A DNA stretch of 64,000 bases from Massalongia carnosa (Eukaryota): contig OZ287070.1 in NCBI GenBank assembly GCA_965645245.1, positions 434,001-498,000 of the forward strand. The letters run 5' to 3'. Made by a program: the position numbers and the translations under genes. The notes beneath the pieces were generated by a model, which ran no database searches, had not been told where the DNA came from, and worked only from the letters and a program-made list of their open reading frames with translations. Every line of letters begins with the position of its first letter. Positions within the stretch are counted from its first letter, which is position 1. This document shows positions 4,122 to 48,064 of this stretch, piece by piece.

Positions 4122-6808
4122 TCACCCCCTCTTCGCCCTCCACCCCTCCTCGCGCCAAAAACAGCACACCCCCCTTCCCTCGCACCACTCCTTGACCAGC
4201 GCGCCGGAGACCTCATCGTCAACGCCCACGCGCGCCAAGCCGACGGTGTTCAGCCACCGCGTCAGGTCCTCCAGCACGATAGGCTCGTAGAGCAGGATAC
4301 GTTCGTGGAAGCTGGGGTCGGTGGCGGAGTGGGTGGGGGGAAAGGTGGTGACGGCGAGGGTGATGAGGGCGTGGAGTGAGGGGGCCGGGGCCGGGGCGGT
4401 TGTGGTTATGTTTATGGGGCGGGAGTTCGTGAGGCGTGGAATGGTGGGGGAAAGGGCGGGGGTGGGGATCTCGGGGGCGGCCGGAGATGTTTTCTTGGGT
4501 CGACCTCGAGGTTTCTTGAGCTGGAGCGATGGGTCGGTGGCAGGATTCTCGTCGCCTTTGGCCGCCGAGATGCTTGCTTTCCGCGATCGACTTGTTTTCT
4601 TCGACGGGCTGGCTTGTTTAGGCATGTCCGCGTTAATCATGCTTGGTTGAGATTCGGGAAGGTTCGTCGGTGGCGGAAGCACTTGTAAGGCGATTCGGCT
4701 CTGGCTTTCCCAGCATCGTTCCAGCAGCGCAATCATCTCCGTTCGTTTCTTGATGGCTTTGAAGCCGTAAGCCGCGACTGCTTTGGCAAGATCCACCGTC
4801 GTGAAACCTGTATAATTGGGCATCTGGTTCAGGGCATTTGGAGGGTTGGGGATTTCTGACTCCGTGGGGGCCTTGGGTTTTTTGACTGGAGATCGACTCT
4901 TTCTACGTCGTAGAAAGGCTTCGGCGATCGATCTAGGGATTGAGTGTTCTAGAGGCGTGTCAACCTGCTCGATGAGCGTGCCCTTTCCGCTCGTATTCGA
5001 TAGCTGGTTTAGCTCGGAGATTTCATCGATGAGCTTCCACTCGATTGAGGGGTCGAGACCTCCACTTGATTTGTCAGGTACTGGTATTGCTCGTTGACCT
5101 GGAGCAGGGGCAGTTTTAGACGGGTTCGGCGTGTCGACCAGATCAACAACTTCAACGTTAAGCAAAGCCCCATCCATATTCCTGGTTGCCACCGACCAGA
5201 GATTTTTAGAAGATGCAAAAGGCGTAATAGCAGAGGCTCCGACCCCGGAAAAGCGTGGCATAGAGCTCATCGATGTTTCCTTTGTCGGCTTTGGGGTTAA
5301 TTGATTATCCGTCAACTCCGATGCCTGAGGGGATTGCCGCTTGCTCCTTGTATCTATTGGGGACTCATCTCGCGCAAGTTGACTGGATGTACCGAATATC
5401 AGCTCTTGATCTTCGGTAGACTTCATCGCCGTCTCGGGTGATAAGAGCAAAGGAGGGTCGACCTTTTTCTTAGCTTTCGAGGTGGGAGGATTTATTTTGT
5501 TCTTCGCCCTTGGCCGCCGTTGCACGTTCTTGGGGTTTGGAACGGCAGGTTGATTTTTAGTTTGAGTTTCTTCATTGGCTTCGGTCACCGGATTCTCAAC
5601 ATACTGCGGCACACATCGTAAAGCCGGTTCTTCGAACACAAAAGGAGCAGTCGCTTTCTCTGTGATTGTCTGCGCTTTCTTCTTGGGTGCTTTTGGCTTC
5701 TCAGACTGGAAACAAGGAACTGGAGGATAGCCGTTTATGTCAACCAACTAAAAAGAATCAGAAACGACATTTCATTATATGTTATTTGACATACTTCAAG
5801 TCTACGCCTTTTCGTTAGAGCTTCGCCAGCCATGTCCCTAAATTTGTCTATATCATATAATGGGCTTTCATTTCGCGTATACCCATAATCCCCAAAGAGG
5901 TTTTCAAATCCAGACAGAGATGACTGCCTCGTCTTACGTTCATTGGAGGAGTTTAGAGCACGCGGTGTTGTTCCATCCTCCAAATTAGAAAGGTGTCCTT
6001 TCGTATCTCTCGTAGGTGTCCAAGATTTCCGCCTCTTGATTGCTTCGACTAAACACAGATCCAGTGATTCCTCATCGAGAATTATAAGCTCGTCGCTCTC
6101 CTTAATTGAAGGCTTCACAGCCGATTCATAATCTATTCGAGGAAATTTTGCGGAGTTGGTTGGTTTAGATTTCTTAGAAATGCTGTCGCTAATAGCAGCA
6201 CCAGGTTTGGTAATCTTGCTCCTTTCGATTGTGGTTTGCCCTTCGTCCTTGCTTTTTTTTGTCCGCTTCTTCGCTGGAACTAGAACCTTTAACATCTCAC
6301 TATCCTGGGGTATATGAGGTTTTCCATCAAAGGCGACCGTTTTTGGCGCTGGTTTAGCTGGTGTTTTCCTGGGAACTTTGGTTTGCTTAATATTGACAGA
6401 GGAGTCAGATGAGAGTTTTCTTGAGTTGGCTGTCTTTTGCTTCCGATTCTCTGGGTTCACCCTGTTTTTCAGCTCCCTTGACTGGACCGTGTTCTTCTCC
6501 TGGTTCTCTGGAAACCCCCTCTCCCCACGTTGCTTTGTTGCCTCAGTCAAGAAGCCTTGAGTCTGCTCAATAGCATGCGCTTCACGGAGCAAATCCGATG
6601 CACTGGTAAACCTTGTAGTAGTGCGTTCAAGTACCGGACTTGCGTATATATTGGGCACAGTACTCGACGCCTTTCTTGCAAATAGTTTAGAAGGTGAGGG
6701 AAGCGTTGGTGACGACGACATCGCGTTAACTGACATAGGAGGTGGTGTTGTCGGAATGATTAAATGGTATGGAAAGGATGAGACGAGTGTAGGATTAGAA
6801 GTTGCCAT
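4122..6808 (-). CDS. SLX4: Structure-specific endonuclease subunit Slx4; exons 6808-5795 and 5747-4122
   Basis: C-terminal Slx4 domain SFHERILLYEPIVLEDLTRWLN...VKEWCEGRGVCCFW; SAP-like MPNYTGFTTVDLAKAVAAYGFK; 47-nt GTATG..TAG intron (5794-5748) joins the two ORFs in frame. Confidence 0.9.
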
Positions 6809-7386
6809 GACAGCGTAGCGCAGAACGCGCGTATGGAGAAACCAATTCAGCTTCGCTACTCTGTACTCTTACATCCTTTCAATATATACATGATTGGGTG
6901 CGTGTGAATGGGTGCATAATACTCTGTAGACATGTTAGAATAATCCCAAGTCGCGTAACCACTTGCCTCAGTACCTCAGACGTGCTGTGGCTCAGCCTTC
7001 GCCTTTATTAACCTTTTCCGGTAAACTCGGCGCTAACTTATTTAGCCTATAAGTCTAACTTTTTATAGTTAGACTTTGCTTACTAAGTTCGCTGTGCTGA
7101 AAATGTTAAAATACTAAGCCGCCTTACCCGATTAAGCGTAAAATATCAACTCGATTGTGTTATACCATACCATCGTTTTCTATGTGTGTGTTTTCCAACT
7201 CCACGACAGTCTATGCGCGCTGTAGAACGCCATCAAGGAACAATGAGCGCGCTTTTTAACCTCGATGCAAGTTAGACAAAAGGCCCGGATCTCAGTCTAC
7301 AATGGACATCTAGTCGAGTCACGAAAATAGTAAGAGAATGACAGCTGCAAGCGGTCATTGATTCATAATTAACTTGTCATCTCTAT

Positions 7387-9562
7387 CCCTCTCGCTGTTA
7401 TCCAAGCATCCCCCCCCCAAGCTAACCATTATTGGTTAAGAAGCGCTAAATCTTAATTATCTGACCAATCAATGTGAACCTGATTACCCCTATTTACAAA
7501 AAGTTCAAATTTATAACTATATCATTTACTCGTCCCAATTCATATGAATAGCTTCCCAACAATTGGCTTTTCTACAGCAAGGCCTGATTGGATGACATCC
7601 TCCACAAGCCCATATAGTCTGAGCACCTCTTCGCCTTTTTATTCGCCCATTAACATCTCTTTCAGCCAGTGGTTATCCCTTTCGCTTTGAAGGTCGTGTT
7701 TTGTTGACTTTACAATGCATACATCTTTGTTTTCTTTCAAGACGAACGTAATGATGAACCGGAGGTGCTACTAAAGCATCAATCGCGGTGTTAATGCTTA
7801 CCTTTGGTGGAACGGGCCTGATGCCCGCTTGATTTGACACCAATTCGAGGGCAATCTGACGAAGAAACTTGGAACGAGTAAGCTTTTTTTCCTCGAGGTG
7901 GAAAGAGTTCATCGAGTAAAGTTTAAACACGTTCAGTCCGACTGCATCCAATGTAAAAATGAATAAAGGCCACCAGTAACGATCCGTACGACGATCGTAT
8001 GAATAAACCGCTCGTTGCTGAGCGTTTCCATCCGACCCTCCCATATAGAGGTTATATTCTCTGATTGGGGCTGGTATTGGTAATCCAAGGGGCCATTGGG
8101 CCGCTTGATTGGGCGAAGGAGAGAAGTGAGCCAGAGTTGATGGGAAATATGGTACAATTGGTTGAAGTGAGGTCTCAGGAATTCCATGCCTTTTGTATGG
8201 ATTTATATAGTGTATTTCGTTCAGGTCCTGGGGAGTGTGGCCGGTGGTCATGTACTGCACACCATTATTATCCACCCAGCCCATACAAAGCACCTCATCA
8301 TCGACCACCATATGTGCTTGCAGGCCCCAGTCTTTTCCTTTTGAGGTGACGTCCCGTATGGCCAACAATTCTTCTTGAAAGCCTGAGCCCTTTTTAGCAG
8401 TCCCGCTGGCAGCTATTCCGATTGATCGAAGTGCCTTGAATAACTTCGTGCTAGTAAAGAAATTATCACAGAAAAGATGATAATCTAGAAAGGATGGAAG
8501 TTCTTTACATAACTGAATCACCACCAAAGCACTGACAGTTAGTCCGTCCTTCATCAAAAATCCCAATTGTTTAGCTGTTTTCAATTGACTTATTTTGCTA
8601 GTCTTGGAGGCAAACAAAAACGACAACAAATAATTATCCTGACAGAGGCTGTAGATTTTAAATCCATTGTGAGCACTTTTAGTAGCGATTTGCATGGTGT
8701 GTCGAGATCGGCCTTTAAATAGCACCAGTTGTTCATCTATAGAAATATTGCTTCCTGGTATGCAATGTTTCAACGAGGCCTTTCGAAAATCAGTGGCCAA
8801 CGGTTCTGGTTTCTTCCACCAATCAGGTCCTTTGCCCAGTCCCGGAGGCTCTGTTCGTCCATTATTGATTTTCAAAAATCGCTTGATTTGTTGAAATCGA
8901 TAAAGCGACATAGCGGACTGAATAGGCATGATGACTGGCTTGTCCGGGCGTTGATTCCAATAATCTTCTGTAGCAGGTAGACGAGTAAGACCCATAAGAA
9001 GTATTATGCCCAAAAATACCTCTATTTCCGAGCCAGTAGTATCAGTCCAATTTCGATGATTATTCTCCTTCTCCTTCTCCATGTAGTCGTGTGCTTTGAT
9101 ATTGGTATGATTTGCGATGATGCGACAATGCTGCCTTGTTATAAACAACTGAAATAATTCCAGAGGACTTCGAGCAATGTCTTCAATTAATGGAACAAAA
9201 GGCCTGTTGATAACACGAATAGGGGTATATTTAGAGGAAGTAGAAGGAATATCGATCAAGATGTTTTGGACACCTCTTTTGCGATTTATTTTATGCTGCT
9301 TCGCTGAGATTGGCGATTTGTCTGAAACACTCGGGATTTCTTCTTCGTTGAGCCCCATAATCACAGTAAAAATCCCGTATATAGAAAGACAGCAATTGAC
9401 GAGGTCTAAATTGATTGAATGAGGTTCAATGAAGTTCATTTGAAAGGTAAACAGTCAAGAAAAAATTGATGTTCGCATGACTAATTCAAATTTGCTAAAT
9501 GCGGAAGCTAGCTAATAATGGTTAGCTTAGAGGGGGGGGGTGCTTGGGTAACAGCGAGAGGG
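7387..9562 (-). mobile_element. piggyBac-superfamily transposon with ~50-bp imperfect TIRs
   Basis: Left CCCTCTCGCTGTTATCCAAGCATC(n)AAGCTAACCATTATT mirrors right AATAATGGTTAGCTTAGAG(n)TGCTTGGGTAACAGCGAGAGGG; CCCT...AGGG ends; encloses a PGBD transposase. Confidence 0.92.
7526..9439 (-). pseudogene. piggyBac transposase (DDE_Tnp_1_7) with one premature TAA at 7675-7673
   Basis: Catalytic motifs SIDEQ, FCDNFFTS, YNLYMGGSD; the frame continues past the stop for 48 codons, ending WACGGCHPIRPCCRKANCWEAIH...* at 7526. Confidence 0.85.
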
Positions 9563-9566
9563 ATAG

Positions 9567-10544
9567 CTAGACTATGTACGGCAAAGCTAGGATCGAGCGG
9601 CAATCATCCTTCATGAACAGGGTTGGACCTGGGTCGCGGAGGTCCTTCGAGCGGAGCTCAATGCACTGGTTGCAACGGCCGCATTTGGGGTTTTCCACCC
9701 ACCGTCGGAGACTGACGAGCTGGGCACCTTAAATAGCTTCAAGGGTGCCGCATCGGTCATCATGAGTGAGGCGCCACGATGGCTAGATCCTATTCAGCGC
9801 GTCTGTTGTGATGCCCACCGAGACGAGTCCACTCATCCTCAGCGCGCTATTCCGGTCGGGCGGCAGTTAACTATATTGTCCCTCTTTGTCACATGTTGCG
9901 CCCGAATACGTCAACAAATTTTCAGAGCGTCATGGGCCTTTATATCTATCAGGGTGGCGCCAGGCGCAGAGTTCTGGATACTTTATGTCAACTTGGCTTG
10001 ACAATGTCGTATTCCACTCTTCAACGGCGCATGTCAAGCTTAAGTGACGAAGCGAGGCGAAAAATAAGGACGATAGGGCGGGCTTCAACTACTGTTGTAG
10101 CCTATGATAATTTTGTTTTTGCAGAAGGCCGAAGAGGCGAGAGAAGCGGTGACGTAAGAGAGTTTCGATCAATTACGACAGCTTTGATATTTGAAGGACA
10201 GGCCCTTTGGGTAACGGTCTTGAGACAGAATATGTGACAACCTGAGAATTATCCTTTGTCCGCCATAGGACTCGCACTAATATTGAAACCAGATGACATA
10301 GACGCACAGGTAAGCATCGACCACTTTTTCAAGCGGCTTACTTGAAACTGATGAAATGTGGACGAAGATTCAAATTCATCATGTCGAGTCGGCAATCCAA
10401 GCCCTTTACAATGCTAAATTCAGCGACTTCAACTTTCCTCGGGTTACATCCATGCCTGTGTTGAAAAGACTGAATCGCCTTCGAACGAAGTATCATCCGT
10501 TGAAGCCGGTTATGAAAGACGAAAGAACAACTGTTGAAGATTAA
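9567..10544 (+). pseudogene. Academ-type (DUF6589-like) transposase fragment, frameshifted and 3'-truncated
   Basis: Motifs NFQSVMGLYIYQGGARRRVLDTLCQLGLTMSYSTL, VVAYDNF, RSITTA, YHPLKPVMKDERT; stop at 10235; intron ~10309-10367; the frame extends back towards the piggyBac junction. Confidence 0.65.
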
Positions 10545-11298
10545 GCATTCCAGCTTGTGATTTCAACAAAGAACTGACTTGAATGTAAATCTCTGGTCGA
10601 TCAAGAGGTGTTTTGATAAGTCGAGTTTCATCATGAAACCCACATTGACTTCTGACGCAGTTCAAGGTTTCTTCATCCAACGTTGCAGAAACTCCCAAAA
10701 AGGGTATTCCATCTGGCAATCGGGTTCGAAGCACCCCAAGATTGAAGTATTCTGGTCGAAAATCACGCCATTCCGATACCAGATGCAGCCCGTCGATAGC
10801 CAACAGACAAAGATTTGAGAAATAAGATGAATGACTGAGAACCATTTCATTAAACAATTTCGACGTTGCTATTTCTGGACTCGTGAATACTGTAAGTAAC
10901 AATTAGAGCGCTGACTTGTATACAAACAGATTTATTCGACTTACCATGAGTGTAACGACTATGACGAATAGCAGTCAAGGTAGACGAGTTGTTATTATCT
11001 CCGTTCAACACTATGGGTCGACAGTTGTCGACAAGAGTAAGTTTTTCACATTGCTCTTCTTCCAGTGCAATCAAAGGCATGATTATCAACACTGATTTGC
11101 AAGGCGAAACATCAAAGGAGCAGCTTGAAATAGTATGCTTTTTCCGAAGCCTGTTTTTGCTATCAAAATCAAATCCATCTTATCGCACAACAGATGATGA
11201 AGTGCATCCACCTGCGCCCTCTTTAGACGAAACCCGAAATAACGATCAACAACGCTCTCGATCTTCTCAAGAGTCAACGCCTGTATCGCGTCGTTCAT
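10510..11298 (-). pseudogene. RecQ-like SF2 helicase, N-terminal (DEAD) domain only, frameshifted
   Basis: Motif I AKTGFGKS, Ia IIMPLIALEEEQ, TSPE, motif II mutated to IDGLH, WRDFRPEY, motif III SAT, LDRPEI; frameshift ~11095; intron 10944-10890; no helicase C domain. Confidence 0.85.
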
Positions 11299-12095
11299 AT
11301 TGATGTAATAGCGCTACAATCTTGATCGAGTTTTCTAACTGTCAAAAAGCACGCTAGCAAGGACGACGACTAGATTTTCGAGTTCGGAGCCCTGAAGGAC
11401 TACAATAACTTGATCCGTCAAGGCAATATGATGGATATAAGCGCCGACCGTTGATTTGAAGAGCAAGACTCAGTTTGATATTGTCGTGCTGTTGTCGGGA
11501 TTTGAGAAACAATTTGAGTCGATGTTGCTCGACGAGGAAGATATTCGCGCAACGCATGCAGGGCGTTTAAATTTTAGGACATTCAATAAAGCATATCTGA
11601 AAGTAGCGGCGACAATGGAGTATTATATAACAATTATCATGTGTTGTCGTTGATCCTGTCCTGAACGTGAAAAACGATGATTTTTTCACGAAATAAATTT
11701 TACATGTGTTGTCACCAAAATAACGCGAACCTGGCAAAATTAGAACTCAGACCTGCCGCCCGAAGCATGCGTAGTAAGCTAAACAGAGTCTTAACCCAAA
11801 ACAATTAAACTATTCCCTAAAAAAGCTTAGCTTTAGACTAATATTTATACTAATTTGAATAGGTTTAGCTGTGGCGAGGGCAAGGCAAACAAAATAGAGC
11901 TTCCAGCTGGGCACGGGCCACTAATAGTTAGCTTATGTGTACTTACTTACATAGGACTAAGGAAGGCCTTTTAATAGTACCACAAACAGCTGCACTAGTA
12001 GCCTTATAACATGGAGCTGAACATTGATTCTCCGGAGAACTAGATACAGTCATCAATTTTATAGCATTTCATTCTATTTTCATCCTTCAAGTAGT

Positions 12096-13142
12096 ATGGC
12101 GATTTCCCAACAGGTAGGTACATAATGCAGGTCCAGTTTCAGATAGCTCGTTGATTAATGATAGCTGTAGAAAACCGGCATTCTCCCAGCTCCGTTTGCT
12201 CTTAATGTCTTCGATTCGGCAGCTTCAGCCATCACGAAAATCGAAGGAGGACACGCTCATACCCATCGTATTCCTCTCCACCCAGCCTCTTATCGCACGG
12301 GTAATCGTATTATAGTCGCGACACTGGAGAGTCCAGCGTATTTAGAATCTGAGCTTAATGTTCAAAGACTAAACGATATACATGAGTGGCTGAAGGTTGT
12401 TGGTCTGCCGATGAAACCTCGCCCGTTACATGTGCAGAGAATCAAGCTGCGGGATATTGTGGTCGCCGAACAAATGGACTTACACCTAGTATGGTCACCG
12501 AAACGAATATTTGTCAAACCTGTCCCACGATTTCTGCTCGACCCTCAATTCTGGAATCATCAATTGTGCGGCCGGGAAGATCTTTATAAATGCGCGCTGG
12601 GGTTTCTGCTGTCATACACAGCTCTCATCGAGCATGAAAGTGACTACCAAATCGCCAAAGATGCACGTCTCCTGCCGGAGGAAGTGACATGGTCACAATG
12701 GGTCTGTCTTGTTGAACAGCTCCTCAATGAAGAAAATCGTGGCAATACGAACATACGGTTTAAATACGGCGAACTGCGTTTAGGCCGGCTCAATATGATA
12801 TATCGATTCAGGAAGGGCCAGATCCGTGGCTATTTGAGCAATAGTACTACCTACGGGGACTTTGTCCGTGAAAACTTTAGTTCTCTCATCGCTTTTTTTG
12901 CTTTTATAACCATTATACTTTCAGCCATGCAAGTTGGCCTGGGTACGCACAATCTGCAAAACAGCACGGCTTTTCACTGGGCCTCGTACGTGTTTGCGAT
13001 ATTCTCAATGATTGCTCCTCTTTTTTCTCTTGCGGTTGTGTTGGTAATTCTGATTGCTTTGTTTTTCAACAATCTTATCGCAACCATGATTTATCATCGA
13101 CGGAAATCCCTTTCGTCAAGAAAATCAAGGGTAGAGGCATAA
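12096..13142 (+). CDS. DUF6601-family membrane protein; exons 12096-12113 and 12171-13142
   Basis: LESELNVQRLNDIHEWL..GLPMKPRPLH, LHLVW..RIFVKPVPRFLL, ALGFLLSY, RFKYGELRLGRLN; two C-terminal TM helices; in-frame GTAGGT..TAG intron. Confidence 0.8.
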
Positions 13143-14618
13143 TGGTTACAGTTGACGATCCTTTTTCTACGCCTTGTGATCCGGGATATGGTAGGCGTAT
13201 CGCGTCTTACAAAATATACACTGAATCATTCGCTGGACTTCGCCAACTGGCCATTATTCAGATCAAAGCTAAACTCGATCGATCCTCGATCAATCCAGCC
13301 CAAAATCACCGCGATCACAACGCCAGACAGCCTTACTAGCTTTGTCCTAGCTATGATACAGCTTTACCAGTTATCCGATTAGCGAACCCATGGGCTTGGA
13401 AGTCATGACCATCATTGAAGCTAACTGGCAGGCTTCTCAGGGAACAACCGCAATCCTATGTAATAACCGTGTTTAAGGTATAGGATTAACCCAACGAAGT
13501 CGAGATTGGGTTGCAAATGGTTTAATGTTAAATGCTTGGCTCTTTAACGATGTATATTATGGTAGATTCACAAAATCTGTGATGAAATTACTCGGTTAAA
13601 CCACGAATCATTTGGGCCGATTCTCATGTAAGGCGCCAACCTATGCCCTAGTTAGTCTATGCTCTTGGTGGATTATAAGACGCACTTGATATATTTAAGG
13701 AAAAGTGCCTACTTTTCGGGCGCCAATCGTTGCTCAATGATCGAGATAAACCAGGAATTCGTTAAGCTCTGTTTATACATCGACATCTTGGTCTTAACCT
13801 ATAGAGTCTGGTCCAAAGATCAAGGTAATTTTGAGGGCTTAGGGCTCACATCGCCATGGGCAAACCCCCATCTCAAGCGAAAAAGGACGCCCATTTGGAA
13901 TATCCCGCTTTAGACATAAGGAGGTGGTGATGTTGTTAAATGTCTTTGAGGACAACGAGGAACTTAAGGACCAAAGAGGAAGTCATAACATATTCCCTCC
14001 ATTTATACTATAATCTTGAAACAATGAAAGATCTTACCGCCGCTTGGCTTCGGCGTCAGCGGTTTCCCCACGGCTCTATGTCTGATCTTGGCATAAAGGA
14101 CTTGATTAACTCGGTATTTGCATACTTTGGAGCGATCTCAAACACACTGGAGCTTGACTGGAGGCGGCTAGAGGATAGTGAGGATAAAGGGGAACCCCCC
14201 GCAAGAAATAATCTTGACATTAGATTAGGTTATTATGGGTGATGGCTAAAGGGAGCGGCAGCAGAATAGGGGGTGCTAAAACAAGATCCGGTGGGATGTG
14301 GGAAGTCTTACATTGTATTTTGATTGTACTCAAATACCTCCTACGTAACTCGAAAGGTTTAGCAGTCTCTGTTCGTACCATGAAATTTGTACGTATACGC
14401 TTACAATTAAGGGTTCTGTGTAGGTATCCACTCTGGAGTTGTTGTTCCACCTTTCTCGACCTGCGTTAAGTAAGCACTCTTGGTACGTAGTAGTTGGGGA
14501 CCGCACGGGCTCTGCAAACGCTAGTTGAAGCGATCGGGCGGTAGAACGTACATCCATAATCATCCGTACAGAGCGCAGTTTCCCATCCGTGCCATCGAAA
14601 AGGAAGCCTCAAGGACTG

Positions 14619-15338: not shown

Positions 15339-18300
15339 ATGGCGACCGCTACCCGTAGCAAGCATTCGAAGCTCGATGCTGTTGTACGTTCGTATCTTTA
15401 CTCGTGGAAATGTAGTGCGCTGAACTCGATTCATCCAGCAAATAAATCAAGGGCTTACAGTGGTGTATCCGGATCCGGATGAGCCGCGAAAGCTGTCAAA
15501 TGAAGAGATATCGGTCGAGTAGGTGTGTTGCTTGGCAGTATCGCAGCTGTTTAATAAAATTGCAGTATCATTGCCGTTCCCGGCCTGGGTGCGAACCCTG
15601 AATGGACCTGGAAAAACAAGAACAAGGTGGACTGGCTTCGAGACTCGAATATGCTTGCCCGTACGACTCCAAACGCGAGAATTCTGATTTTCGAATATGA
15701 AAGTCAGTGGTTTGGGAAGGGATCCATTGACCAGAGACTCGCGAGCGTGGCCAATCAGCTTGTGCAGGCGGTGTTGTACTCAAGACCGGTATATAATCGC
15801 ATAAAACCAAGGTTTCAGGCACAGGCGCATTGAGTGTGCTGACTGTCTGCATAGAGAGGATCTACGCGGCCGATTGTTTTTGTCTGTCATTGTTTGGGAG
15901 GTATCATCGTGGAAAAGGTTAGTCGAAGACCGACACTGCTGACATGCCTGCTCACAACATCCTCAAGGCACTCCTTACGGCGAAGCTCCGCCAAAGCGAC
16001 TACCCCAACATATTCATGTCGGCAGTAGGCTGCATCTTTCTAGGTACCCCATTTCGAGGTACCAAATCCCAGTCCAAAGCGTCTCTATTAGCCGACATGG
16101 CTCAGACGGTGGGACTCGGAATAAATTCAGGACTGGTAAAGCTGCTTGAAGGTGGTTCTGAGACCCTGAAAGATTTGCTCGACGACTTTGTTGCTGCGGC
16201 CAAAGAAGCGAACATGCGGTTGTTTTGCTTCTTTGAACAGCACGAGAGCGATATGATGAGACTCCTTTCGAAGAGTTCTCCGATCAAGCACAAGGTATCG
16301 AGATAGCCTCCGAATCCAATCTGTTTGATGCACCAGCTGAACTTTCCTTGCAGGAAATTATTGTCGAAGAGGATTCAGCAACATTCCCTGGCTTCAATCA
16401 TGGATCCTTAGCATCAGACCATTTTGAGCTGAACAAGTTTAATGGACCAAAAGACGGACGGTACATCTCCGTCTCCAGTGAAATCAGTGCCACTGTCCAG
16501 AAGGCCCGCGGGATTCTCAAGTCCCGTCAAAATGGTAGGATTTTATGAAACCCTGTGTACTTATCTGGTTGACCAATACCATACAGCGGTTCGCCAGACT
16601 CTCATAGATGACGGCACTTATCAAACGATTCTGGACGCTTTGAAAGTCACAGATCCAGCGAAAGACAAGGACGATAGCGTAAGAGGTAGGCCGATAAGTC
16701 AAGCAAAATGGGTGCTCGGCAATGAAAACTACATGACTTGGAAAGATAAACAGGCCTCTAAAGTGCTATGGATTCATGGCACCGCCGGTCAGGGGCAAGC
16801 CGTCATTGCTTCTTCTCTTGTGCAAGAATTATCGGAGCAGGCAAAGAAAGACGACAGCATATTCTTGGCGTATTTTTTCTGTGACGAGAAAGACTCTCAT
16901 CGACGTAGTATACTCGATATTCTGAAGGTCCTCATTCGCCAAATGATCCTCAGGAAGCGTGATCTAACAGAATACCTACTTGTGGATCAACGTAAGGTGA
17001 AGAAAGGTGATCAAAGTTCCCAGAATTTGGAGGCTACATCGGTATCAGCGCTTTGGAACAATCTCCAGAACATGCTTAAAGATCCTTCGATTGGGACGGT
17101 ATATTTTCTTGTGAATGGCCTCGATGAAACGGATCAAGAATCGCGAGAAGAATTTCTTAGCTCACTGGTTCCTTACCTAGAGACCCAGCCTGATGAAGAA
17201 AGCACTTCGGAGGAAAGCATTATTAAATGGGTATTCCTGAGCAGATCTGGCAGGCCTGATATCGAGGCCAAACTACAAAAGGGTCTCGTCATCAATATGG
17301 AAGATAAAGAGAACGTTAGTCACGTTAACGATGCGGTAAAGGCAGAGATATCTGGTCAAGTCGAAAAATTGGCCCAGCAGAAGAGTTATAACGCTGCCCT
17401 TGCGTACTTCATCAAGAGACATATTCATTCAAGAGCCGAGGGGAATTATATATACGTTAACCTTGTGATTCAGGAGCTGAAAAACCTTGAAACGACCCGA
17501 CTGAATAACTCTGGTATCAGGAAATTTTTGGAAGGATTTCCCTATGGCTTGACAAACATGTTTGAGCACATTCGCCGCCGGGTAAGTTTCTCTGAGCATT
17601 TTCCAACTTTCTTCGCTACCCTCAGTTTTGCTACGCCTCTTTTCCTCAAGTGCCATTCGCCGTCAAAGTCTCCGAACCAAAGTTGATATCTGTCAAGAGT
17701 TCTCTAATTTTGAATCGCCTGGCTTTCTGTATCTTGCTAATGAGTTCTAACGCAGGTTTTGGACCCTCAAAGTGAAGGTATTGAATATACCAAAGAGATC
17801 TTCCGATGCCTTATTCTTGCGCACCGATCGCCAACACTGTTCGAACTTGCGCTAATAGCGGACTTGCCGCAAGAAGACCGAAACGACGAGACAAGCTTGA
17901 GACGCTACATCACTCGATGTGGAGCATTCGTCACAATATCCGAGATTGATAATGAAACAGTTGAATGGATTGATGTGGCTGCAAAGGAGCATCTGGAAAC
18001 CTATGCGAAAGATCAGTTATCACTGTCGCTAACAGATGTTCAACATGGTATTGTAGCTCTTCGGTGCCTGGATTTTGTGCGCAAGTATGCGATTGTGCAG
18101 AAGGAAGAGGAAGCTGACGAGGAACCTCCCGATAATCAGGAAGAACCCGATCAGCCAGACCTCACACCTATTGGCCAAGATGCTTCTAATACCCAGGTTG
18201 ACGAGAAGCCCATTGAGGAAGAAGATTATCTAAGTCAAGGCGATCAGACTCAAACTTATCAAGCTTCTAGTTATTCTGACGAATACCCCCAACAGGGCCG

Positions 18301-21300
18301 GCAACCTTTTCTTCATCAGGCTCAAACTTACGATGGCCAGGGCTACGACGGATGGCCCGATCCAGAACAAGACTATGACAATCAAGGGCACGAACATCAG
18401 AATGATTCATTCCCACCTCATATAGATGCCTTGAATGACAAAGATCAAGTTATTGATGGGCAAGAGGATCCAGGCCAACCCGGACCAACTGAAAACAATC
18501 GCCAAGCCGAGCTAGCGAGCAACTCTGGTGAAATAGCCGCTTCGGAGGTCCCTGAGGAAATTCAAATGGATTTAGGATACGCGGGTGAATGCTGGATACA
18601 ACACGCGAAGCTAGCACCAGTCGACGTTGTCGAAGAGTTTAACTTGAACGACGAATTCTGGGTCGAGAATTCTCGCCCCCGAAATGTATGGTGGAGTGCA
18701 TATGCATTAGACAATGGACTCGCTGGCCTGGCAGATGTCACTACTCTTCACATTGGTGCGCTATCCGGCTTTTCTGCGCTAGTAGACCATTTACTCCTAC
18801 AAGAGCGCACGGACGAGATTCATAAGTCAGACTCATGGGGTTTCCGCCCTTTTTACTGGGCTTGTCGGAACGGCGATATTTACCTGGTTCAACGGCTTCT
18901 CAAGGCCGGATCAGATGTAAACGCACACCGCCACGATGGGAATATTACCGCCTTGTGGATCGCAGCATCGGAGGGCCATCTGGAGGTTGTACGATACCTC
19001 CTTAGCCAGAACGCCGAGCTTGACGTACAGGATGAAGAGCTTGGCACGCCGCTATACGTCGCTGCGGAGAACGGTTGCAGCCAGGTGGTCCGACAGCTTT
19101 TAGAACATCAAGCAGATGTGAATCTGGCTGGAGGGTTACATCGCAACCCACTCAACGCGGCTTCATATAACGGACACCTTGAGGTAGTGCAGCTCCTACT
19201 CCAAGCTCATGCAGAAGTAGACCCGGAGGAGGAATATCGATACGGCAGCGCTCTTGGAGCCAGTGCACGAAAGGGCCACATCGATATAGTGCGGCTGTTG
19301 CTGCAGAAGGGTTGGAATGCTAATCGAAAGATCGGGACCTATGGGAGCCCTATAGTTGCAGCTGCTACATACGGCCACGCGGACGTAGTGCAAGCCCTAC
19401 TTGAGCAGAATGTAGATACTTCCTCAAAAGAGCAGGCATTGGAAATTGCCTCAAAGAATGGGAAGACTGATGTTGTCAAGAAGCTTCTGGAGCAGTCCAA
19501 TTACCTGCGACACCAAAAGGCGTTCCTGCTTGCAGCGTCTTTTGGTCGGGATGATGTACTTGAGCTCCTGCAAACGCGAGGCACTAATCCCGACATGTTA
19601 AACAATGCTCTTTATGAGGCATCGGATCATGAACATGAATCCACTGTTGACTTGTTGGTTAAGTTTGGTGCAAATCCCGACGCTGAGGGCGTGGAGTATG
19701 CCACCTATATACCCACCTGCATGTGGACAGGCTAACCTCTCTGTAGATACGGGACCGCACTGACGGCAGCAGCGTTTGACGGCAGCGAAGGAATCGTGCA
19801 AATTCTACTCGATCATGGGGCCAACGTAAACAAGCAAGGGGGCAACTATGGCAATGCCCTCCAAGCTGCTGCATGCTGCGGTAATGTGGATGTCGCTCGA
19901 AAGCTTCTTGACCACGGAGCCCACGTCAACAGGGAAGCCATTGGGATATATGGTAACGCGCTCCAGGCGGCTTGTTATTCTGGAAGTGGTGATCTGGTAG
20001 ATCTATTACTAACGTATGGCGCGGATGTGAATGCCTATGGTGGTACATATGGCTATCCAATTATCGCTGCGGTAGATGAGTGCGATTCAAATGTCCTTAG
20101 GAAACTTCTGGAACATGGTGCCGACGTCAACGTAAAAGGCAGCGAAGATAATACCCCAGTCTTGGTCCTTGCAGGATATGGATTGCTCAAGGATGACATG
20201 GAGTTGCTCCTGCATTACGGAGCGGAAATCGATATTGCAGATGACTGTGGCAATACCGCCTTGATCGCCACAGCAAGCTCCGGAGACACAGAAGGCATTG
20301 AGTTTTTGCTTGATCGTGGAGCAAACATTCACGCCGTTAGCAGCGAGTATGGAGCCGCGCTTCATGCGGCAGCCTCCGAGGGCGATGAAGAATGTCTTCG
20401 AATCCTGATCAGCCGCGGAGCGAATGTAAATCAGGAGGGGGGACCTTGGAATACTTCTTTGCAAGCAGCGGCAATAGCTGCGGACCTTGATTGTATTAGA
20501 ATGCTCATTGACGCCGGCGCAGACGTCAACTTGGGTGGAGGCGATTACGACTCGGCCTTGCAAGCCGCCGCATTTTCCGGTGATCTCGAGTGTCTCCAAG
20601 CGATTTTGGCTGCTGGAGCCGACGTCAGTCATGGAGGCGGCAAGTACGGTAGCGCTCTGCAGGCCGCAGCCATAGTGGGAGAACCCAAATGTCTCCAAGT
20701 TCTTCTGGAAGCAGGCTCGGATGTTAACCAGGCAGGCGGATTATACGGCTCAGCACTGCAAGCAGCGGTCTCCAAAAATCGGAACATCGATTGCGTCGAG
20801 CTACTCTTGGATCATGGCGCCACTGTTCATGCTTACGGTGGACTTTACGGCTCGGTCATGCAGGCTGCGGCCGTAGGTAACAACTTGAACATGTGGGGTC
20901 TACTTGTTGACAATCATGGAGCTGACGCCCATGTGGTTGGGGGGAAATATGGTAATGCTCTCCAGGCTGCAGCTGTGAAGGCTACAGACGATTTTGTGCT
21001 GCGACTGCTGGAGTCTTCCGTCGATGTTTCTAACGAGGTCGGGGGAAAGTACAACACCGCCTTGCAAGCTGCTGCGTACGCCAATCGGCCCGAGGTTGTG
21101 ACAATGCTGCTGGAACATGGTGCGGATGTTAGCATTCAGGGTGGATTCTATGGAAATGCGCTGACTGCCGCGGCGTGTAAGGGCAATACGCGCGTGTTGT
21201 CTCTTTTGCTTGTAAAATCGCTGCCCACAAATATTCTCGATGAGGCGCTTCTGCAAGCCGTTCATCATCGCCAAGCTGGAGTGGTGGAAATGCTCCTCAA

Positions 21301-21424
21301 GCATGGTGCGAATGTCGAGGCGAGAGACGAGACTCTTGGATCTGCTCTAGACGCAATTCAGAAGGAGTTCCAAGCAGACACCAATAGCGACGATGGTGGC
21401 GATGGGTATGAAGAAGAAGATAGC

Positions 21425-21462
<38 letters not shown>

Positions 21463-23116
21463 CGATGAAGAGGGCGAAGGAGAAGCGATTGAGGAGATTG
21501 TGCCTGACGTTCAAGATAATGATGCGAGCGTTGCCAGCCTTCAGCTCGGAGATCCAACCACGGAAGAGAGCAAGATCCTGAAGCTTCTGGAAGACGCCCA
21601 GACAAAGCTAAAGCGGAACCCAAGCGTCAAACGAGTCCGCTCGGTTAGACGTAAACCAGTCTCTCCGAATCCGGCCGGTGGAAATGGCAAAGAGGCGGGG
21701 GTTCGCAATCATGCGCAGTATCTGAACGCTGAACCGGTTGCAGGAAGTCATCCATTTCATAACAACACTTTGCAAGCTTCACAGCCTCAGAACCCTCAGT
21801 ATTCCCAACATCCTATCGCGATGCAACCCCAAGACGCTAGGCCCATGAGTAGCAGCCATGAAGCGTACGGTAGCATTGATCACATTCCTCGGCCTCAGAA
21901 CACCAAAACCTCTTCATATGCTGAATACGGACGAACTCAGCTCCAAAGTGGACAAGCCCCAAGTTCTATGTCGATGAACAGCAACCATACAGGTTATGGG
22001 GGTGGTGTGCAGGTTCCACCCTCTCCTGCTCTCGATTACTCCCAACTTCCCAACCCCGTACAACATCAGCCCCAAGTGCATGATGGCAGCGGCCAAGTAC
22101 CACAGTCTCAGTATCAGGACCCCGTATCGCTTCAGGCCGTTGAACTTGCAGACAGCAACTACCACTTATACGGCGGAAGCGGCCAGATCCCACCGTCTCA
22201 ATCCCTTCAACCCCAATATCCCGTCGCTGGACAGTCCCAGGGGGATGTGCGTCCGCAAAGCAGCCATCATGCATATAGCAGCAGTGGACAAATGCAAACT
22301 CCTCAGCCTCAATATCCTGCCACCGGAATGTCTTACAGTGTTGAGCTTCTTGACAGTCAAGCCTATCCCAACAGCGGCCAGACGTTACAATCTCAATCTC
22401 CTAAACCGCAGTATTCACCCACCAGCAGCCATTATCCATCCTACAGTGGGAGTGGCCTTATCACACCGTCTGCGTCTCCTCATCCCCAGTATTCTGCCAC
22501 AGCTGGTCCACCTTCCGGTGTCGAACGTCCAAATAGCACGCATCAAGCGTCCTACAGTAGCGAACAGTCTCCACGTCCTCAATACTCCCATATGGGACCA
22601 TCTCAGAGCGTTGAACTCCCGCATCACCAAACCTACGGCAGCAACAGTCAAGTCCCGCAAGCGTACAATACCAGCGCCGCAATCCCTCAATCCCAGTCTC
22701 CCCATCCCCAATACGCCACTCCGGGACCACCGCAAGGCGCCGAACCGCAAAACCCCAATTACCATACTTACAGCAACAAACCCCCACCCCCTCCATCGCA
22801 ATCCCCCCACTCCCAATACTCTCAATCCCCCCAACCTCCACCCGCCCGCCCCCAATATCCCCCTAGCAGCAGCAGCGGCGGTGGGCCACCGCTGCCATAT
22901 TCCGGCGCCAGCACGCCACTGCCTCCGCCTCCTGGTTCGTCCCAGCCATACCAGCAGTATTCCAACACACCGCCCCCACCTCCGCCACCGGGAACACAGC
23001 AGGGGTATGGCACTCAGCCGCAGCGGCCGGGCGCGGACGGGTCCGATTTCACCCGGTTGCAGGCCAAGGCGATGAAGTTTGGCTCGTCATTTACGAAGAA
23101 GTTTGGCATTCAGTGA
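15339..23116 (+). CDS. NLR-like protein (~2407 aa): SesB/DUF676-type alpha/beta hydrolase, NACHT-like NTPase, ankyrin array, P/Q/S/Y-rich tail. Exons 15339-15383, 15439-15518, 15566-15788, 15855-15917, 15968-16294, 16354-16534, 16587-17581, 17756-19695, 19747-23116
   Basis: DIIAVPGLGA..WTW, WLRD..L...PNARIL.FEY.SQWFG, RPIVFVCHCLGGIIVEKAL, IFLGTPFRG, FCFFEQ, DHFELNKF; NACHT LWIHG..G.G, YFFCD, GLDE, RAEGNYIYVNLV; many G.YG.ALQAA ankyrin repeats; all eight GT-AG introns keep frame (7224 nt). Confidence 0.9.
21424..21466 (+). repeat. (GAT)n coding microsatellite (poly-Asp)
   Basis: Seen directly, inside the last NLR exon. Confidence 0.9.
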
Positions 23117-34284: not shown

Positions 34285-36311
34285 CAGTGAAACCTGGTTA
34301 AAACGAACCTTTTTCCAACGAATTCGGCTTATAAGGAATTTTTTTCATGGATGAGCGATTCTTGTATGTAAAATAACGAATGTCGGCCTATTGCGAATTC
34401 GTAAGCAATTTTAGAAAGTTTCTTAGTGATTCGCTATAACTAGACCTCGGCAATTACCCTTTTAGGATTAGCTGATAAAAATTCTTGATACGTAGTACTA
34501 CATGCTGCGCATCCTATCGATAGATAACATATCCTTTTAATAACCAACAACTCATCATGAATTCTTCCTCCAAAAAACGTCGTCGACCTATCACAGATGC
34601 AGAAAAACACGCGCTTCGTCAGTATGTTCAGAATAATTTCGTTAAAAGACCTTTCGGCAAAGCTCTTCAAGTCTGGTTTGAAGCTGAATTCGGTCATACA
34701 CCTTCGGAATCTACAATATCGGATATTCTTTCTCGAAAATACGATCGTTTAAATGAGAAGGAGACATTTCAACCTGATATCAAAAGATTGAAAGCTTCTT
34801 TTTGGCCGGATCTTGAAGCGGCTCTTTTCGAATGGCAACAACGAATGCAGACAAAGCAGGCGACTGTGACGGGAGAGTTATTGAAGGAGATGGCAAAGAA
34901 AATCTGGACAAGACTTCCTCAATACTCTCATGAAGAAATGCCCAAATTTTCTAACGGTTGGCTAGATGCTTTTAAAGCTCGTCATTCCATCTCCTTTCGT
35001 ATTCGACATGGAGAAGCGGCATCAGTTGACAAGGAGACAGTGGAAGAAGAATTGAGGGACTTGAGAATTAAGTTGGCTCCGTACGATCAAGACGATGTAT
35101 ACGACATGGATGAGGCTGCCTTGTATTGGAAGATGAATCCGAATGGAACGTTGGCTACAGCTTCATCTGCTGGATTGAAGCTTGAGAAAGCTAGAATAAC
35201 CGTTAATTTTTGCGTTAATGCAACGGGCACTCATAAACTTCCACTTTTGTTCATTGGTACGGCAAAAACACCTCGCTGTTTTACGCGTGAGGGGATCAAC
35301 GTTAGCAACCTGAATATGCTATGGCGAAGCAATAGAAAGGCATGGATGACGGGAGTATTATTTCAAGAGTATTTGCAATGGTTTAGTCGTCAAACAAATC
35401 GCAAAGTAGTCTTGCTAGTCGATGGATTTTCAGCTCATGTTGCTGGCTATCGTCAGTATTCAGAATCAAATCCTGAATCATACGTTAAAGTGATATTTCT
35501 TCCTGCCAATGCTACAAGCATCTGTCAACCATTGGATCAAGGCATCATCAAGACGTTTAAGGCTCACTACAAGCGAAAATGGCTAGCCTTTTTATGTGAT
35601 CAGTATGATGCGGACAAAGATCCTTTTAAGAACATGCATATTTTGCAAGCTATTCGTTGGTCAATGACTGCTTGGGAGTATGACGTCAAACCCGCTACTA
35701 TCGTCAACTGCTGGATTAAGTCTTTGGTATTCTCAGCAAATTACGGACCTACTACGCAATTACAAGCGAAGAAAATAGGCTGGACGAAAGAAAAGGGTTG
35801 GTCGAAGGCAGTTGATCAAGAGACGGAAGACTACAATCAACTAGTAAAAGAGATGAGCACTACATTGCAGCAGTTGAAGAAGAATGATCGCATTCAAGAC
35901 GTCATAAGTATTGAACGATGTCTCAATCCCGCGGAAGAAATCATTGAGGATGATGATGATGACATTCTTGATACTATTGTGGATGCATACGCCGAGGGTC
36001 AAATTGAAGAATCGGATGAAGATGAGATCGTCAAACCTACAGTGAAATACTCTGAAGCTATTCAAGCTTTGAGAATACTACGTACATTTGATGAGCAACA
36101 GGAAGATGGCGACATCGATCTGATTCAACGTTTGAATGCTTCGGAGCAGGTTATGCTAAATGGGGAAATCAATACTAGAAAGCAGATGACCATTACCAGC
36201 TATTTTAGGTAGAAAATGAGATGTTTTCGTAGAAATTAAGGTTATAACGAAAACTGGTTATAACGAATTTTTTTCATGGAATCATCGATTCGTTATAGCC
36301 AGGGTTCACTG
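34285..36311 (+). mobile_element. Tigger/CENP-B-like pogo transposon, structurally intact, nested in the Fot1-like element
   Basis: TIRs CAGTGAAACCTGGTTAAAACGAA / TTCGTTATAGCCAGGGTTCACTG (20/23 match); TA at 34283-34284 and 36312-36313; removing it restores host frame ...TDPD-NREY... Confidence 0.95.
34557..36212 (+). CDS. Intact pogo/Tigger-type transposase (551 aa): CENP-B/Abp1-like HTH, HTH_Tnp_Tc5, DDE_1, acidic tail
   Basis: WFEAEFGH..S.STISDIL, PDLEAALFEW, FSNGWLDAFKARH, DMDEAALYW, LLVDGFSAH, QPLDQGIIKTFKAHY (37 residues between 2nd and 3rd Asp). Confidence 0.92.
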   Translation: MNSSSKKRRRPITDAEKHALRQYVQNNFVKRPFGKALQVWFEAEFGHTPSESTISDILSRKYDRLNEKETFQPDIKRLKASFWPDLEAALFEWQQRMQTKQATVTGELLKEMAKKIWTRLPQYSHEEMPKFSNGWLDAFKARHSISFRIRHGEAASVDKETVEEELRDLRIKLAPYDQDDVYDMDEAALYWKMNPNGTLATASSAGLKLEKARITVNFCVNATGTHKLPLLFIGTAKTPRCFTREGINVSNLNMLWRSNRKAWMTGVLFQEYLQWFSRQTNRKVVLLVDGFSAHVAGYRQYSESNPESYVKVIFLPANATSICQPLDQGIIKTFKAHYKRKWLAFLCDQYDADKDPFKNMHILQAIRWSMTAWEYDVKPATIVNCWIKSLVFSANYGPTTQLQAKKIGWTKEKGWSKAVDQETEDYNQLVKEMSTTLQQLKKNDRIQDVISIERCLNPAEEIIEDDDDDILDTIVDAYAEGQIEESDEDEIVKPTVKYSEAIQALRILRTFDEQQEDGDIDLIQRLNASEQVMLNGEINTRKQMTITSYFR

Positions 36312-47943: not shown

Positions 47944-48064
47944 TGATCAGCAAGTCACTCGCGGCGCAAAACGGGGACAGGCAGGCTTTTTGCAGTTCGA
48001 CTGAATGGGTCGAGGAGAGAAAATCGTGGTATGGAGCTTGGTCACGGGCGATATTGTCCATATA

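Follow-up and report, generated by a model that had tools for sequence, protein, structure and literature searches.

A probable internally deleted derivative of a helicase-carrying, Academ-type DNA transposon in Massalongia carnosa

Two truncated genes in one repeated unit

We analysed a 64,000-nt stretch of Massalongia carnosa DNA (contig OZ287070.1, positions 434,001-498,000; hereafter the window, to which all coordinates refer), together with contigs of four public runs aligned to window positions 6500-13500. Positions 9567-11298 of the window had been predicted from sequence to hold a helicase-carrying, AcademH-like transposon of an ascomycete. At this locus, a + strand relic of the DUF6589 family (9570-10532) meets a - strand RecQ-like helicase relic (11298-10534) tail to tail at about 10533, and each relic contains one in-phase GT-AG intron. 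In profile searches, similarity to the transposase stops at 10532 and similarity to the helicase at 10528-10534. Both relics are 5' parts, each gene lacking its 3' part.

The borders of the predicted interval are meaningful (9567 is the first base beyond the inverted repeat of an adjoining piggyBac-like element, and 11298 is the helicase ATG), but they enclose no more than the central part of a larger unit, which continues beyond the piggyBac-like insertion and rightward to cover 6992-11867. With the nested insert subtracted, the modelled element measures 2698 bp. We regard it as probably a non-autonomous, internally deleted derivative of a helicase-carrying (AcademH-like) class II transposon of the Academ superfamily. 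The prediction of a helicase-carrying transposon thus survives in that relics of both genes lie in one unit, but the copy appears to be a deletion derivative and not a two-gene element. The features of the locus are:

6984-6991, no strand: left 8-bp direct repeat GCTGTGGC, a putative target site duplication
6992-7098, no strand: left terminal inverted repeat, imperfect, about 105 bp, in inverted alignment with 11764-11869
7099-7384, + strand: left internal segment without recognisable coding similarity, continuing directly at 9563 in contigs from each of the four runs
7385-9562, - strand: nested piggyBac-like element, a later insertion outside the Academ-type unit, with a 593-aa (amino acid) open reading frame (ORF) at 7673-9454
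9570-10309, + strand: transposase relic exon 1, about positions 126-370 of the 380 in the relatives' profile, keeping AYDNF
10310-10367, + strand: transposase intron, 58 nt, phase 0, with a GTAAGC donor, ACTGAT branch site and AG acceptor
10368-10532, + strand: start of transposase relic exon 2 (first part of DUF6589), ended by the putative internal deletion
10534-10889, - strand: start of helicase relic exon 2 (motifs II and III), ended by what appears to be the same deletion
10890-10944, - strand: helicase intron, 55 nt, splitting a Val codon (GTAAGT...CTAAT...ACAG)
10945-11298, - strand: helicase relic exon 1, starting at the ATG, with motifs I and Ia and a single frameshift near 11107
11299-11763, no strand: right internal segment, upstream of the helicase gene and within the high-depth block 6968-11881, with no coding similarity
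11764-11867, no strand: right terminal inverted repeat, partner of 6992-7098
11868-11875, no strand: right 8-bp direct repeat GCTGTGGC, an exact copy of the left one

No further copy of the element occurs elsewhere in the 64-kb window.

The transposase relic

The motifs named in the original prediction are all present on the + strand: the ORF 9812-10237 contains GARRRVLDTLCQLGLTMSY and AYDNF, and the ORF 10314-10544 contains HPLKPVMKDE. A 141-aa fragment from this strand has 18 relatives (E 6e-44 to 1e-18, 42-67% identity). Exon 1 similarity, by tblastn and hidden Markov model (HMM) searches, covers 9591-9923 in frame 0 and 9824-10324 in frame 2, with E-values down to 4e-82. It begins at 9570-9591 in frame 0 and, from about 9884, continues in frame 2; a TGA at 10235-10237 does not interrupt it, and it ends at the GTAAGC donor at 10310 and resumes at 10368. 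Positions 1-125 of the 380-position profile of the relatives have no counterpart, so that the N-terminal third of the transposase is gone.

Two lesions interrupt what is left. The first is the loss of one base after 9884, where some contigs from each of the four runs have an extra T. The second is the TGA at 10235-10237, for which every covering contig, again in four runs, has a G at 10237 (TGG). The proposed intron is confirmed by the relatives, since all 18 were called as ORFs without regard to introns and terminate shortly after the same donor, at 10310. Beyond the intron, similarity to full-length DUF6589 proteins picks up in another frame.

On the exon 2 stump, the Pfam family DUF6589 (PF20231) gives E 0.087 and 11.9 bits over profile positions 19-82 of 410. 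This falls short of the gathering cut-off (27 bits), as no more than the first fifth of the domain remains; relatives sharing the upstream region score 51-235 bits. A profile built from seven full-length relatives matches exon 2 with an independent E-value of 3.9e-6 at positions 342-414 of 853, ending at 10532. By profile similarity, the + strand gene family is a member of DUF6589 and the window copy is a remnant of it, retaining only the first Academ motif (AYDNF). We also considered that the truncated transposase might be kept as a repressor protein, and set this aside: the frame is closed by a TAG at 9588-9590, and there is no ATG nearby.

The helicase relic

Facing the transposase, the - strand ORFs 11313-11086, 11179-10850 and 10902-10510 carry the helicase motifs AKTGFGKS, DGLH, DFRPEY and SAT, the DExH box having decayed to DGLH. 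A 130-aa fragment of the relic has 51 relatives (E 1e-45 to 4e-11), while the Pfam DEAD family matches the stumps weakly (8e-4 and 3e-4). With the best match, P0019, tblastn places residues 1-64 on 11298-11107 and residues 65-135 in another frame. Exon 2 is 69% identical to P0019 across 119 aa, and a helicase profile of the downstream exon matches it with 4.9e-64 at positions 2-122 of 624. The intron at 10944-10890 is read through in frame by P0019, and is absent from another relative, the full-length P0040; its removal restores ...RYTH-V-FTSPEIA, as in the uninterrupted P0040. For both introns that had been predicted, then, splice signals and relatives agree.

Against solved structures, P0040 matches bacterial RecQ (3e-31), WRN (7e-27), RECQ1 (7e-24), BLM (6e-23), RECQ5 (3e-22) and RECQ4 (6e-22); DEAD-box RNA helicase structures follow only from 7e-10. 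The best NCBIfam match is recQ_fam (TIGR00614) with 8e-48 and 163.3 bits, under its cut-off of 219.8, and it spans profile positions 6-329 of 470, which correspond to the two motor domains only. In nine helicase relatives, Pfam finds DEAD and Helicase_C and none of RecQ_Zn_bind, RQC or HRDC. As the match is confined to the motor domains, without the RecQ C-terminal, RQC or HRDC domains, the helicase is by homology RecQ-related and not a host gene of the Sgs1/BLM type. The nearest Atlas clusters, which we take as a lead only, are labelled 'DNA 3'-5' helicase', lack RecQ_Zn_bind and are mostly basidiomycete, one being cnidarian.

A side observation concerns another relative, P0028 (69% identity to the relic), whose 90%-identity cluster has 43 members on contigs of 1.3-3.8 Mb. 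The exact sequence of P0072, from this cluster, is found on 10 contigs. Some assembled genome thus carries many near-identical copies, a sign that a related element was recently active.

Ends, copies and the nested insertion

The two ends of the unit (6990-7098 and 11869-11764) align in inverted orientation with identity in 73 of 98 ungapped columns and a score of 47. Shuffled sequences score 27.4 +/- 5.2, and the observed score is reached by 3 of 1000 shuffles and by none of 89 other window segments. The repeat GCTGTGGC is the only exact direct repeat of at least 8 bp between 6940-7010 and 11850-11905; it occurs four times in the window, and its two copies on the + strand sit precisely at the borders of the inverted repeats. 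In addition, a unique flank contig of run X5 stops at 6991. Alternative ends at 6963/11888 (TTGCCT...AGGCAA) were rejected in favour of 6992/11867, as they have no flanking duplication.

In three runs, contig depth is higher by a factor of about 15-150 across 6968-11881 than in the flanks, although it is summed over contigs and does not give a copy number. The contigs aligned number 132 to 1646 per run, with identities from more than 99% to less than 90%. Given the high summed depth and this range of identities, many diverged copies of the internally deleted form exist in fungi associated with lichens. The summed depth is also raised over the gene-gene junction itself in X1, X2 and X5. A 2116-nt X6 contig from a differently labelled organism joins 7000-7384 to 9563-10893 at about 96% identity and spans the gene-gene junction, and therefore the deleted form itself is the repeated unit.

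Contigs that join 7384 to 9563, and hence represent copies without the piggyBac-like insert, are found in all four runs, so the relic extends across 7099-7384. A coding remnant of the N-terminal region had been suspected by eye to the left of the insert; it was rejected, as the A1 profile matches nothing in 7099-7384, even at E 1000. The insert itself has 35-nt inverted repeats at 7383-7417 and 9532-9566 (94% identity), with ends that start CCC. Its intact 593-aa ORF matches Pfam DDE_Tnp_1_7 (7e-48) and the piggyBac transposase structure 6x67 in the PDB (9e-16). Contigs of all four runs skip exactly 2178 bases (7385-9562), with two shared letters. Transposase and ends are thus those of a piggyBac element, but the insert duplicates only AT, at the centre of a CTATAG palindrome seen in contigs without it, and not the canonical TTAA. 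The summed depth of this element is very high in the runs examined.

Three runs also contain short derivatives of about 250 bp, in which the two ends are joined (7078-7098 to 11760-11784) with varying breakpoints and filler. The inner end of the left repeat, 7098, is a recurrent breakpoint of these derivatives. They raise the alternative that only the coding block is an Academ-type relic, and that the ends and the 8-bp duplication belong to some other miniature inverted-repeat transposable element (MITE) of about 250 bp that received or captured it. The joins do resemble empty sites at 7098/11764, 7098 is also the site of 18-base and approximately 54-base length differences between copies, and the 8-bp duplication differs from the 9 or 10 bp given for AcademH target site duplications in parts of PMC10045372. 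However, the breakpoints vary (7078, 7096 and 7098 on the left; 11760, 11764, 11775 and 11784 on the right) and carry filler, for which reason independent internal deletions fit better than one precise empty site. There are also neither duplications nor inverted ends at 7099/11759, and in the X6 contig, under another organism label, the left end runs on into the coding block. We consider capture by a MITE unlikely, and prefer to treat the ends and the coding block as parts of one transposon.

DUF6589 as a candidate Academ transposase core

To place the transposase, we searched 1.84 billion cluster representatives with a profile of the 18 relatives and the window sequence, which matched 1427 representatives at E<=0.001 and 563 at E<=1e-10. 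Among the 150 matches listed, DUF6589 directly follows the matched region in 8 of the 11 longest; the other three are 500-aa calls of exon 1. All 15 members of an alignment of full-length proteins contain DUF6589, with a best E-value of 1e-72. Named full-length relatives, all called hypothetical protein, come from Sclerophora amabilis (four paralogues), Geoglossum umbratile, Metarhizium anisopliae (16 member sequences) and Ilyonectria destructans in a search with P0157, one of these long matches; Xylographa carneopallida has another. Invariant or nearly invariant in the 15 proteins (P0233 numbering) are D277-N278 (in YDNF), T300-T301, E394, the D of GDQKT, F463-H464, N656 and E672-x2-N675. The first catalytic D lies upstream of the Pfam border of DUF6589.

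We compared these residues with the published Academ RNase H-like HMM (465 positions, 44 sequences), an alignment of Yuan and Wessler extended by Muszewska et al. 2017 according to parts of PMC5751038. The comparison covered profile positions 1-40, 143-194, 220-245 and 424-465, and four motifs correspond:

Academ positions 1-6, q-f-D-N-w-D (D and N about 0.9 each): DUF6589 family [YW]-D-N-F-[DE]
Academ positions 185-194, y-v-v-l-t-g-d-q-p-l: DUF6589 family h-h-h-x-G-D-Q-K-T
Academ positions 220-229, g-f-F-H-i-e-k-q-a-l: DUF6589 family [AG]-L-F-H-L-x-M-N
Academ positions 428-462, l-l-S-f-t-G...G-[W/F]-a-y-v-h-l-D-e-a-l-E-...-K: DUF6589 family L-V-N-x-x-G...G-W-x3-D-x3-E-x2-N-x3-K

The order of the motifs is the same and their spacing alike (positions 3, 191, 223 and 454 of the profile versus D277, D429, H464 and E672 of P0233). 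We scored the best ordered chain of four blocks per protein, using the emission rows of positions 2-6, 186-194, 220-229 and 450-457. Nine of 12 full-length relatives score 37-50.5 bits, above all 300 shuffles (mean about 23.5, standard deviation about 3.9). For the remaining three, 6, 7 and 8 of 300 shuffles score as high; one of them has a mutated second D, and another is a gene model without that region. Seven unrelated controls (the piggyBac-like, pogo-like, Prp8 and ankyrin ORFs of the window and three helicases) are reached by 5-74 of 100 shuffles, and none beats all of them. In 11 of the 12 proteins, blocks one to three coincide with the conserved motifs.

The length of the domain also suits Academ. 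Core profiles measure 465 positions for Academ, 339 for KDZ, 304 for Dada and 273 for Kolobok, and DUF6589 fits Academ best; the D-to-E span is 374-587 aa in the nine relatives measured, and 374-437 aa in eight of them. The predicted Academ similarity of the + strand ORF has thus held up: its relatives carry DUF6589, and the transposase groups with the Academ superfamily by its motifs. That DUF6589 is the core of an Academ-type transposase is supported at the motif level.

Perhaps, instead, DUF6589 represents a separate, unnamed DDE superfamily that resembles Academ at a few catalytic motifs, in which case the element would carry a helicase without being an Academ. The comparison is by motif blocks only, and the 8-bp duplication is unlike both Academ lineages. 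HMMER finds no other Pfam transposase family (no second one in the full-length relatives at E<=1), and a profile of the full-length relatives finds no transposase among solved structures, the best match being a designed repeat protein at E 0.014. Against this stand four to five motifs in the same order and at similar spacing, including the invariant D-N and F-H, and a domain length that suits Academ and not Kolobok, Dada or KDZ. The clusters resembling DUF6589 and the helicase are, moreover, commonest in Basidiomycota, with one helicase cluster in Cnidaria, and this weighting agrees with the account of Academ in fungi in parts of PMC5751038. An unnamed superfamily seems to us very unlikely, and we retain the assignment to Academ.

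Both genes together elsewhere

Three of 47 transposase-family entries share the exact size of their longest contig, as well as its source, with one of the 51 helicase relatives:

P0001 and P0022: contig size 10167, ENA
P0017 and P0033: contig size 6339, Logan
P0237 and P0019: contig size 28673, JGI

By a rough estimate, well below one such coincidence is expected by chance. A third batch of entries gave no additional transposase-helicase pair of equal contig size. The pairs suggest, indirectly, that relatives of the two genes share contigs elsewhere. Together with the junction on the X6 contig and the raised depth across it in three runs, they agree with the expectation that transposase and helicase occur together beyond this locus.

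These findings also bear on the simplest alternative, namely that two unrelated pseudogenes, for example a decayed host RecQ-like or telomere-linked helicase and a solitary DUF6589 relic, have become neighbours by chance. Stray RecQ-like helicase genes are numerous in fungi, and a full-length copy with both genes has not been seen. However, the two similarities abut within a few bases, and the joined form is repeated, also at about 96% identity under another organism label. The same-size pairs suggest the association among more distant relatives as well, and the window does not look like a chromosome end, with Slx4, Prp8 and other single-copy genes around the element. Chance adjacency is therefore highly improbable, and one transposon carrying both genes remains our preferred explanation.

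We also scanned metagenomes with the exon 1 alignment, which gave at least 597 pattern matches; two loci were confirmed among the matches listed. These (L001, 4167-5180, and L002, 710-1723) are 94% alike and amount to one locus, holding exon 1 of a related gene (42% identity). Exon 1 is an open frame of 361 aa in L001 and split in two in L002, in both cases within DNA of 50-54% GC. Downstream of it, GC falls to 21-37% and there is hardly any ORF, a pattern resembling repeat-induced point mutation (RIP) that sets in abruptly where exon 1 ends.

Several points weigh against reading the unit as an Academ-type, helicase-carrying derivative. The inverted ends are weak (74% of ungapped columns), and the duplication is 8 bp in a single copy (8/9 or 8/10 if taken as longer), with borders that depend on this weak inverted repeat. 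About 30 bases beyond each flanking repeat also seem to be repeated and, when joined, form a small palindrome; the element probably sits inside yet another small repeat, and its borders are accordingly a model from one copy. The link to Academ draws on about 130 of 465 profile positions. Within these, the fourth block coincides with the conserved D-x3-E in no more than 6 of 12 proteins, part 7 of the profile (positions 143-168) shows no matching motif, and D191 has a probability of only about 0.4 in the profile. As the blocks were picked once the matches were already known, the four-block score is support and not proof. The same-size contig pairs are indirect evidence for co-occurrence, a two-gene copy at full length has not been seen as DNA, and no helicase or DUF6589 signal follows exon 1 in L001 or L002, even with stops read as X.

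How the element may have arisen

The observed anatomy, family links, multiplicity and coexistence of forms with and without the nested insert can be brought together as follows. The parent element would have had two convergent genes between long, imperfect inverted ends. One would encode a transposase of about 800-950 aa, with a putative DNA-binding N-terminal region followed by DUF6589 and its DDE catalytic core; the D, D and E in the DUF6589 region would presumably cut at the long inverted ends, and insertion would involve a staggered cut of about 8 bp. The other would encode a RecQ-like superfamily 2 (SF2) helicase of about 700-950 aa, which may unwind or process DNA during transposition.

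A single deletion could then have stripped each gene of its 3' part, leaving the two 5' parts in tail-to-tail contact at about 10533; the transposase would also have lost its N-terminal third. When gap repair after the excision of a class II element is interrupted, internal deletions with filler are a typical outcome. Judged by its reading frames, the stump can no longer make either protein, and the copy is dead. With both ends kept, however, it could still be mobilised in trans by the enzymes of full-length copies. Afterwards, this copy would have acquired its two private lesions and the piggyBac-like insertion.

A further step would be to see here a distinct helicase-carrying Academ lineage of Pezizomycotina (lichen fungi), with an 8-bp stagger, ends of about 105 bp and recent activity (copies more than 99% alike), for which DUF6589 would be the missing Academ handle. 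We put this forward tentatively, and hold it to be rather doubtful as a whole.

Neighbouring genes and other mobile elements

To the right of the element lies a DUF6601 gene (12171-13142, + strand, 3.5e-89), whose fungal family has predicted membrane segments and no known function. Further along, 16433-23116 (+ strand) contains an NPHP3_N (NACHT-type) ORF followed by two long ankyrin-repeat ORFs, an NLR-like arrangement common in filamentous ascomycetes. An intact 562-aa pogo/Tc5-like transposase ORF at 34524-36212 (+ strand; DDE_1 5e-48, HTH_Tnp_Tc5 and HTH_ABP1_N) is either a possibly active DNA transposon or a domesticated CENP-B-like gene. Positions 45001-48000 form a block of 60% GC, compared with about 47% for the window, and contain a 499-aa ORF (45040-46539, - strand) with an NDC10_II match at 4e-13. 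The NDC10_II domain is also found in Crypton-type elements.

Significance

Academ is among the least studied superfamilies of eukaryotic DNA transposons. According to parts of PMC5751038, its catalytic domain had no Pfam match in 2017, and DUF6589 has been suggested as a virulence or epigenetic factor in passages of a preprint (bioRxiv 10.1101/2025.10.24.684071), the one publication we found in which the family is named. Our literature searches, bioRxiv preprint supplements excepted, found no published link between DUF6589 and Academ, and the supplements of PMC10799480 contain no DUF6589, PF20231, AcademH or KolobokH. This link seems to be unpublished, as do the 8-bp duplication and the present Pezizomycotina family with its ends of 105 bp.

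If the link is true, DUF6589, with more than 1,400 clusters at 50% identity that are all annotated as hypothetical, would be a database handle for Academ transposases. Ordinary domain scans could then recognise Academ elements, and DUF6589 genes would no longer be read as candidates for virulence or regulatory factors. Academ-type elements would also be seen to leave amplified deletion derivatives in lichen-associated ascomycetes, and the locus offers a worked example of three nested mobile layers. Our understanding of transposition is unchanged by this fairly ordinary find, whose main effect would be to name a large family of proteins of unknown function.

Comparison with known systems

The helicase shares with the RecQ helicases (bacterial RecQ, WRN, BLM/Sgs1, RECQ1, RECQ4/Hrq1 and RECQ5) its two RecA-like domains and RecQ-type motifs, including DFRPEY. 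It differs from them in a recQ_fam score below the cut-off and in consisting of the helicase core only. For the transposase, the Pfam entry PF20231 gives no function, whereas the motif match points to an Academ-type transposase core.

RecQ-type helicases are also carried by fungal cut-and-paste transposons of another lineage, KolobokH, and it could be asked whether the element belongs there. According to parts of PMC9587614, the helicase of KolobokH follows the transposase and shares its strand, and that of a red-algal Kolobok lies on the complementary strand; Kolobok elements are described as having TTAA duplications and 5'-RR...YY-3' termini. The fungal host, the RecQ-type helicase and the red-algal precedent for opposite strands would suit such an assignment. 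In contrast, the duplication here is GCTGTGGC, the left terminus starts with TC, the two genes converge, and the catalytic core is much longer (a D-to-E span of at least 374 aa versus 273 positions in the Kolobok core profile). We give the assignment to KolobokH almost no weight, and return to Academ.

The AcademH lineage is reportedly defined by Kojima 2020 (Mobile DNA 11:15). Like AcademH, the element is probably a DNA transposon of a fungus in which a DDE transposase is accompanied by an SF2 helicase gene; Academ catalytic motifs are present in its transposase family, and there are non-autonomous derivatives, as noted for Marasmius in parts of PMC8290104. The helicase, moreover, lies inside the element, the 5' parts of both genes being fused within one repeated unit with inverted ends; for AcademH, passages of PMC10045372 propose that it affects the opening of the ends or of the target. 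Unlike AcademH, this copy has a putative target site duplication of 8 bp instead of 9 or 10 bp, and it encodes nothing functional. The occurrence in an ascomycete, part of the original prediction, is not new: parts of PMC10799480 report AcademH at low copy in Basidiomycota, Ascomycota and Mucoromycota. As AcademH is in print for animals and for fungi including Ascomycota, this kind of element is already known. We place the element as AcademH-like, within or beside the AcademH lineage.

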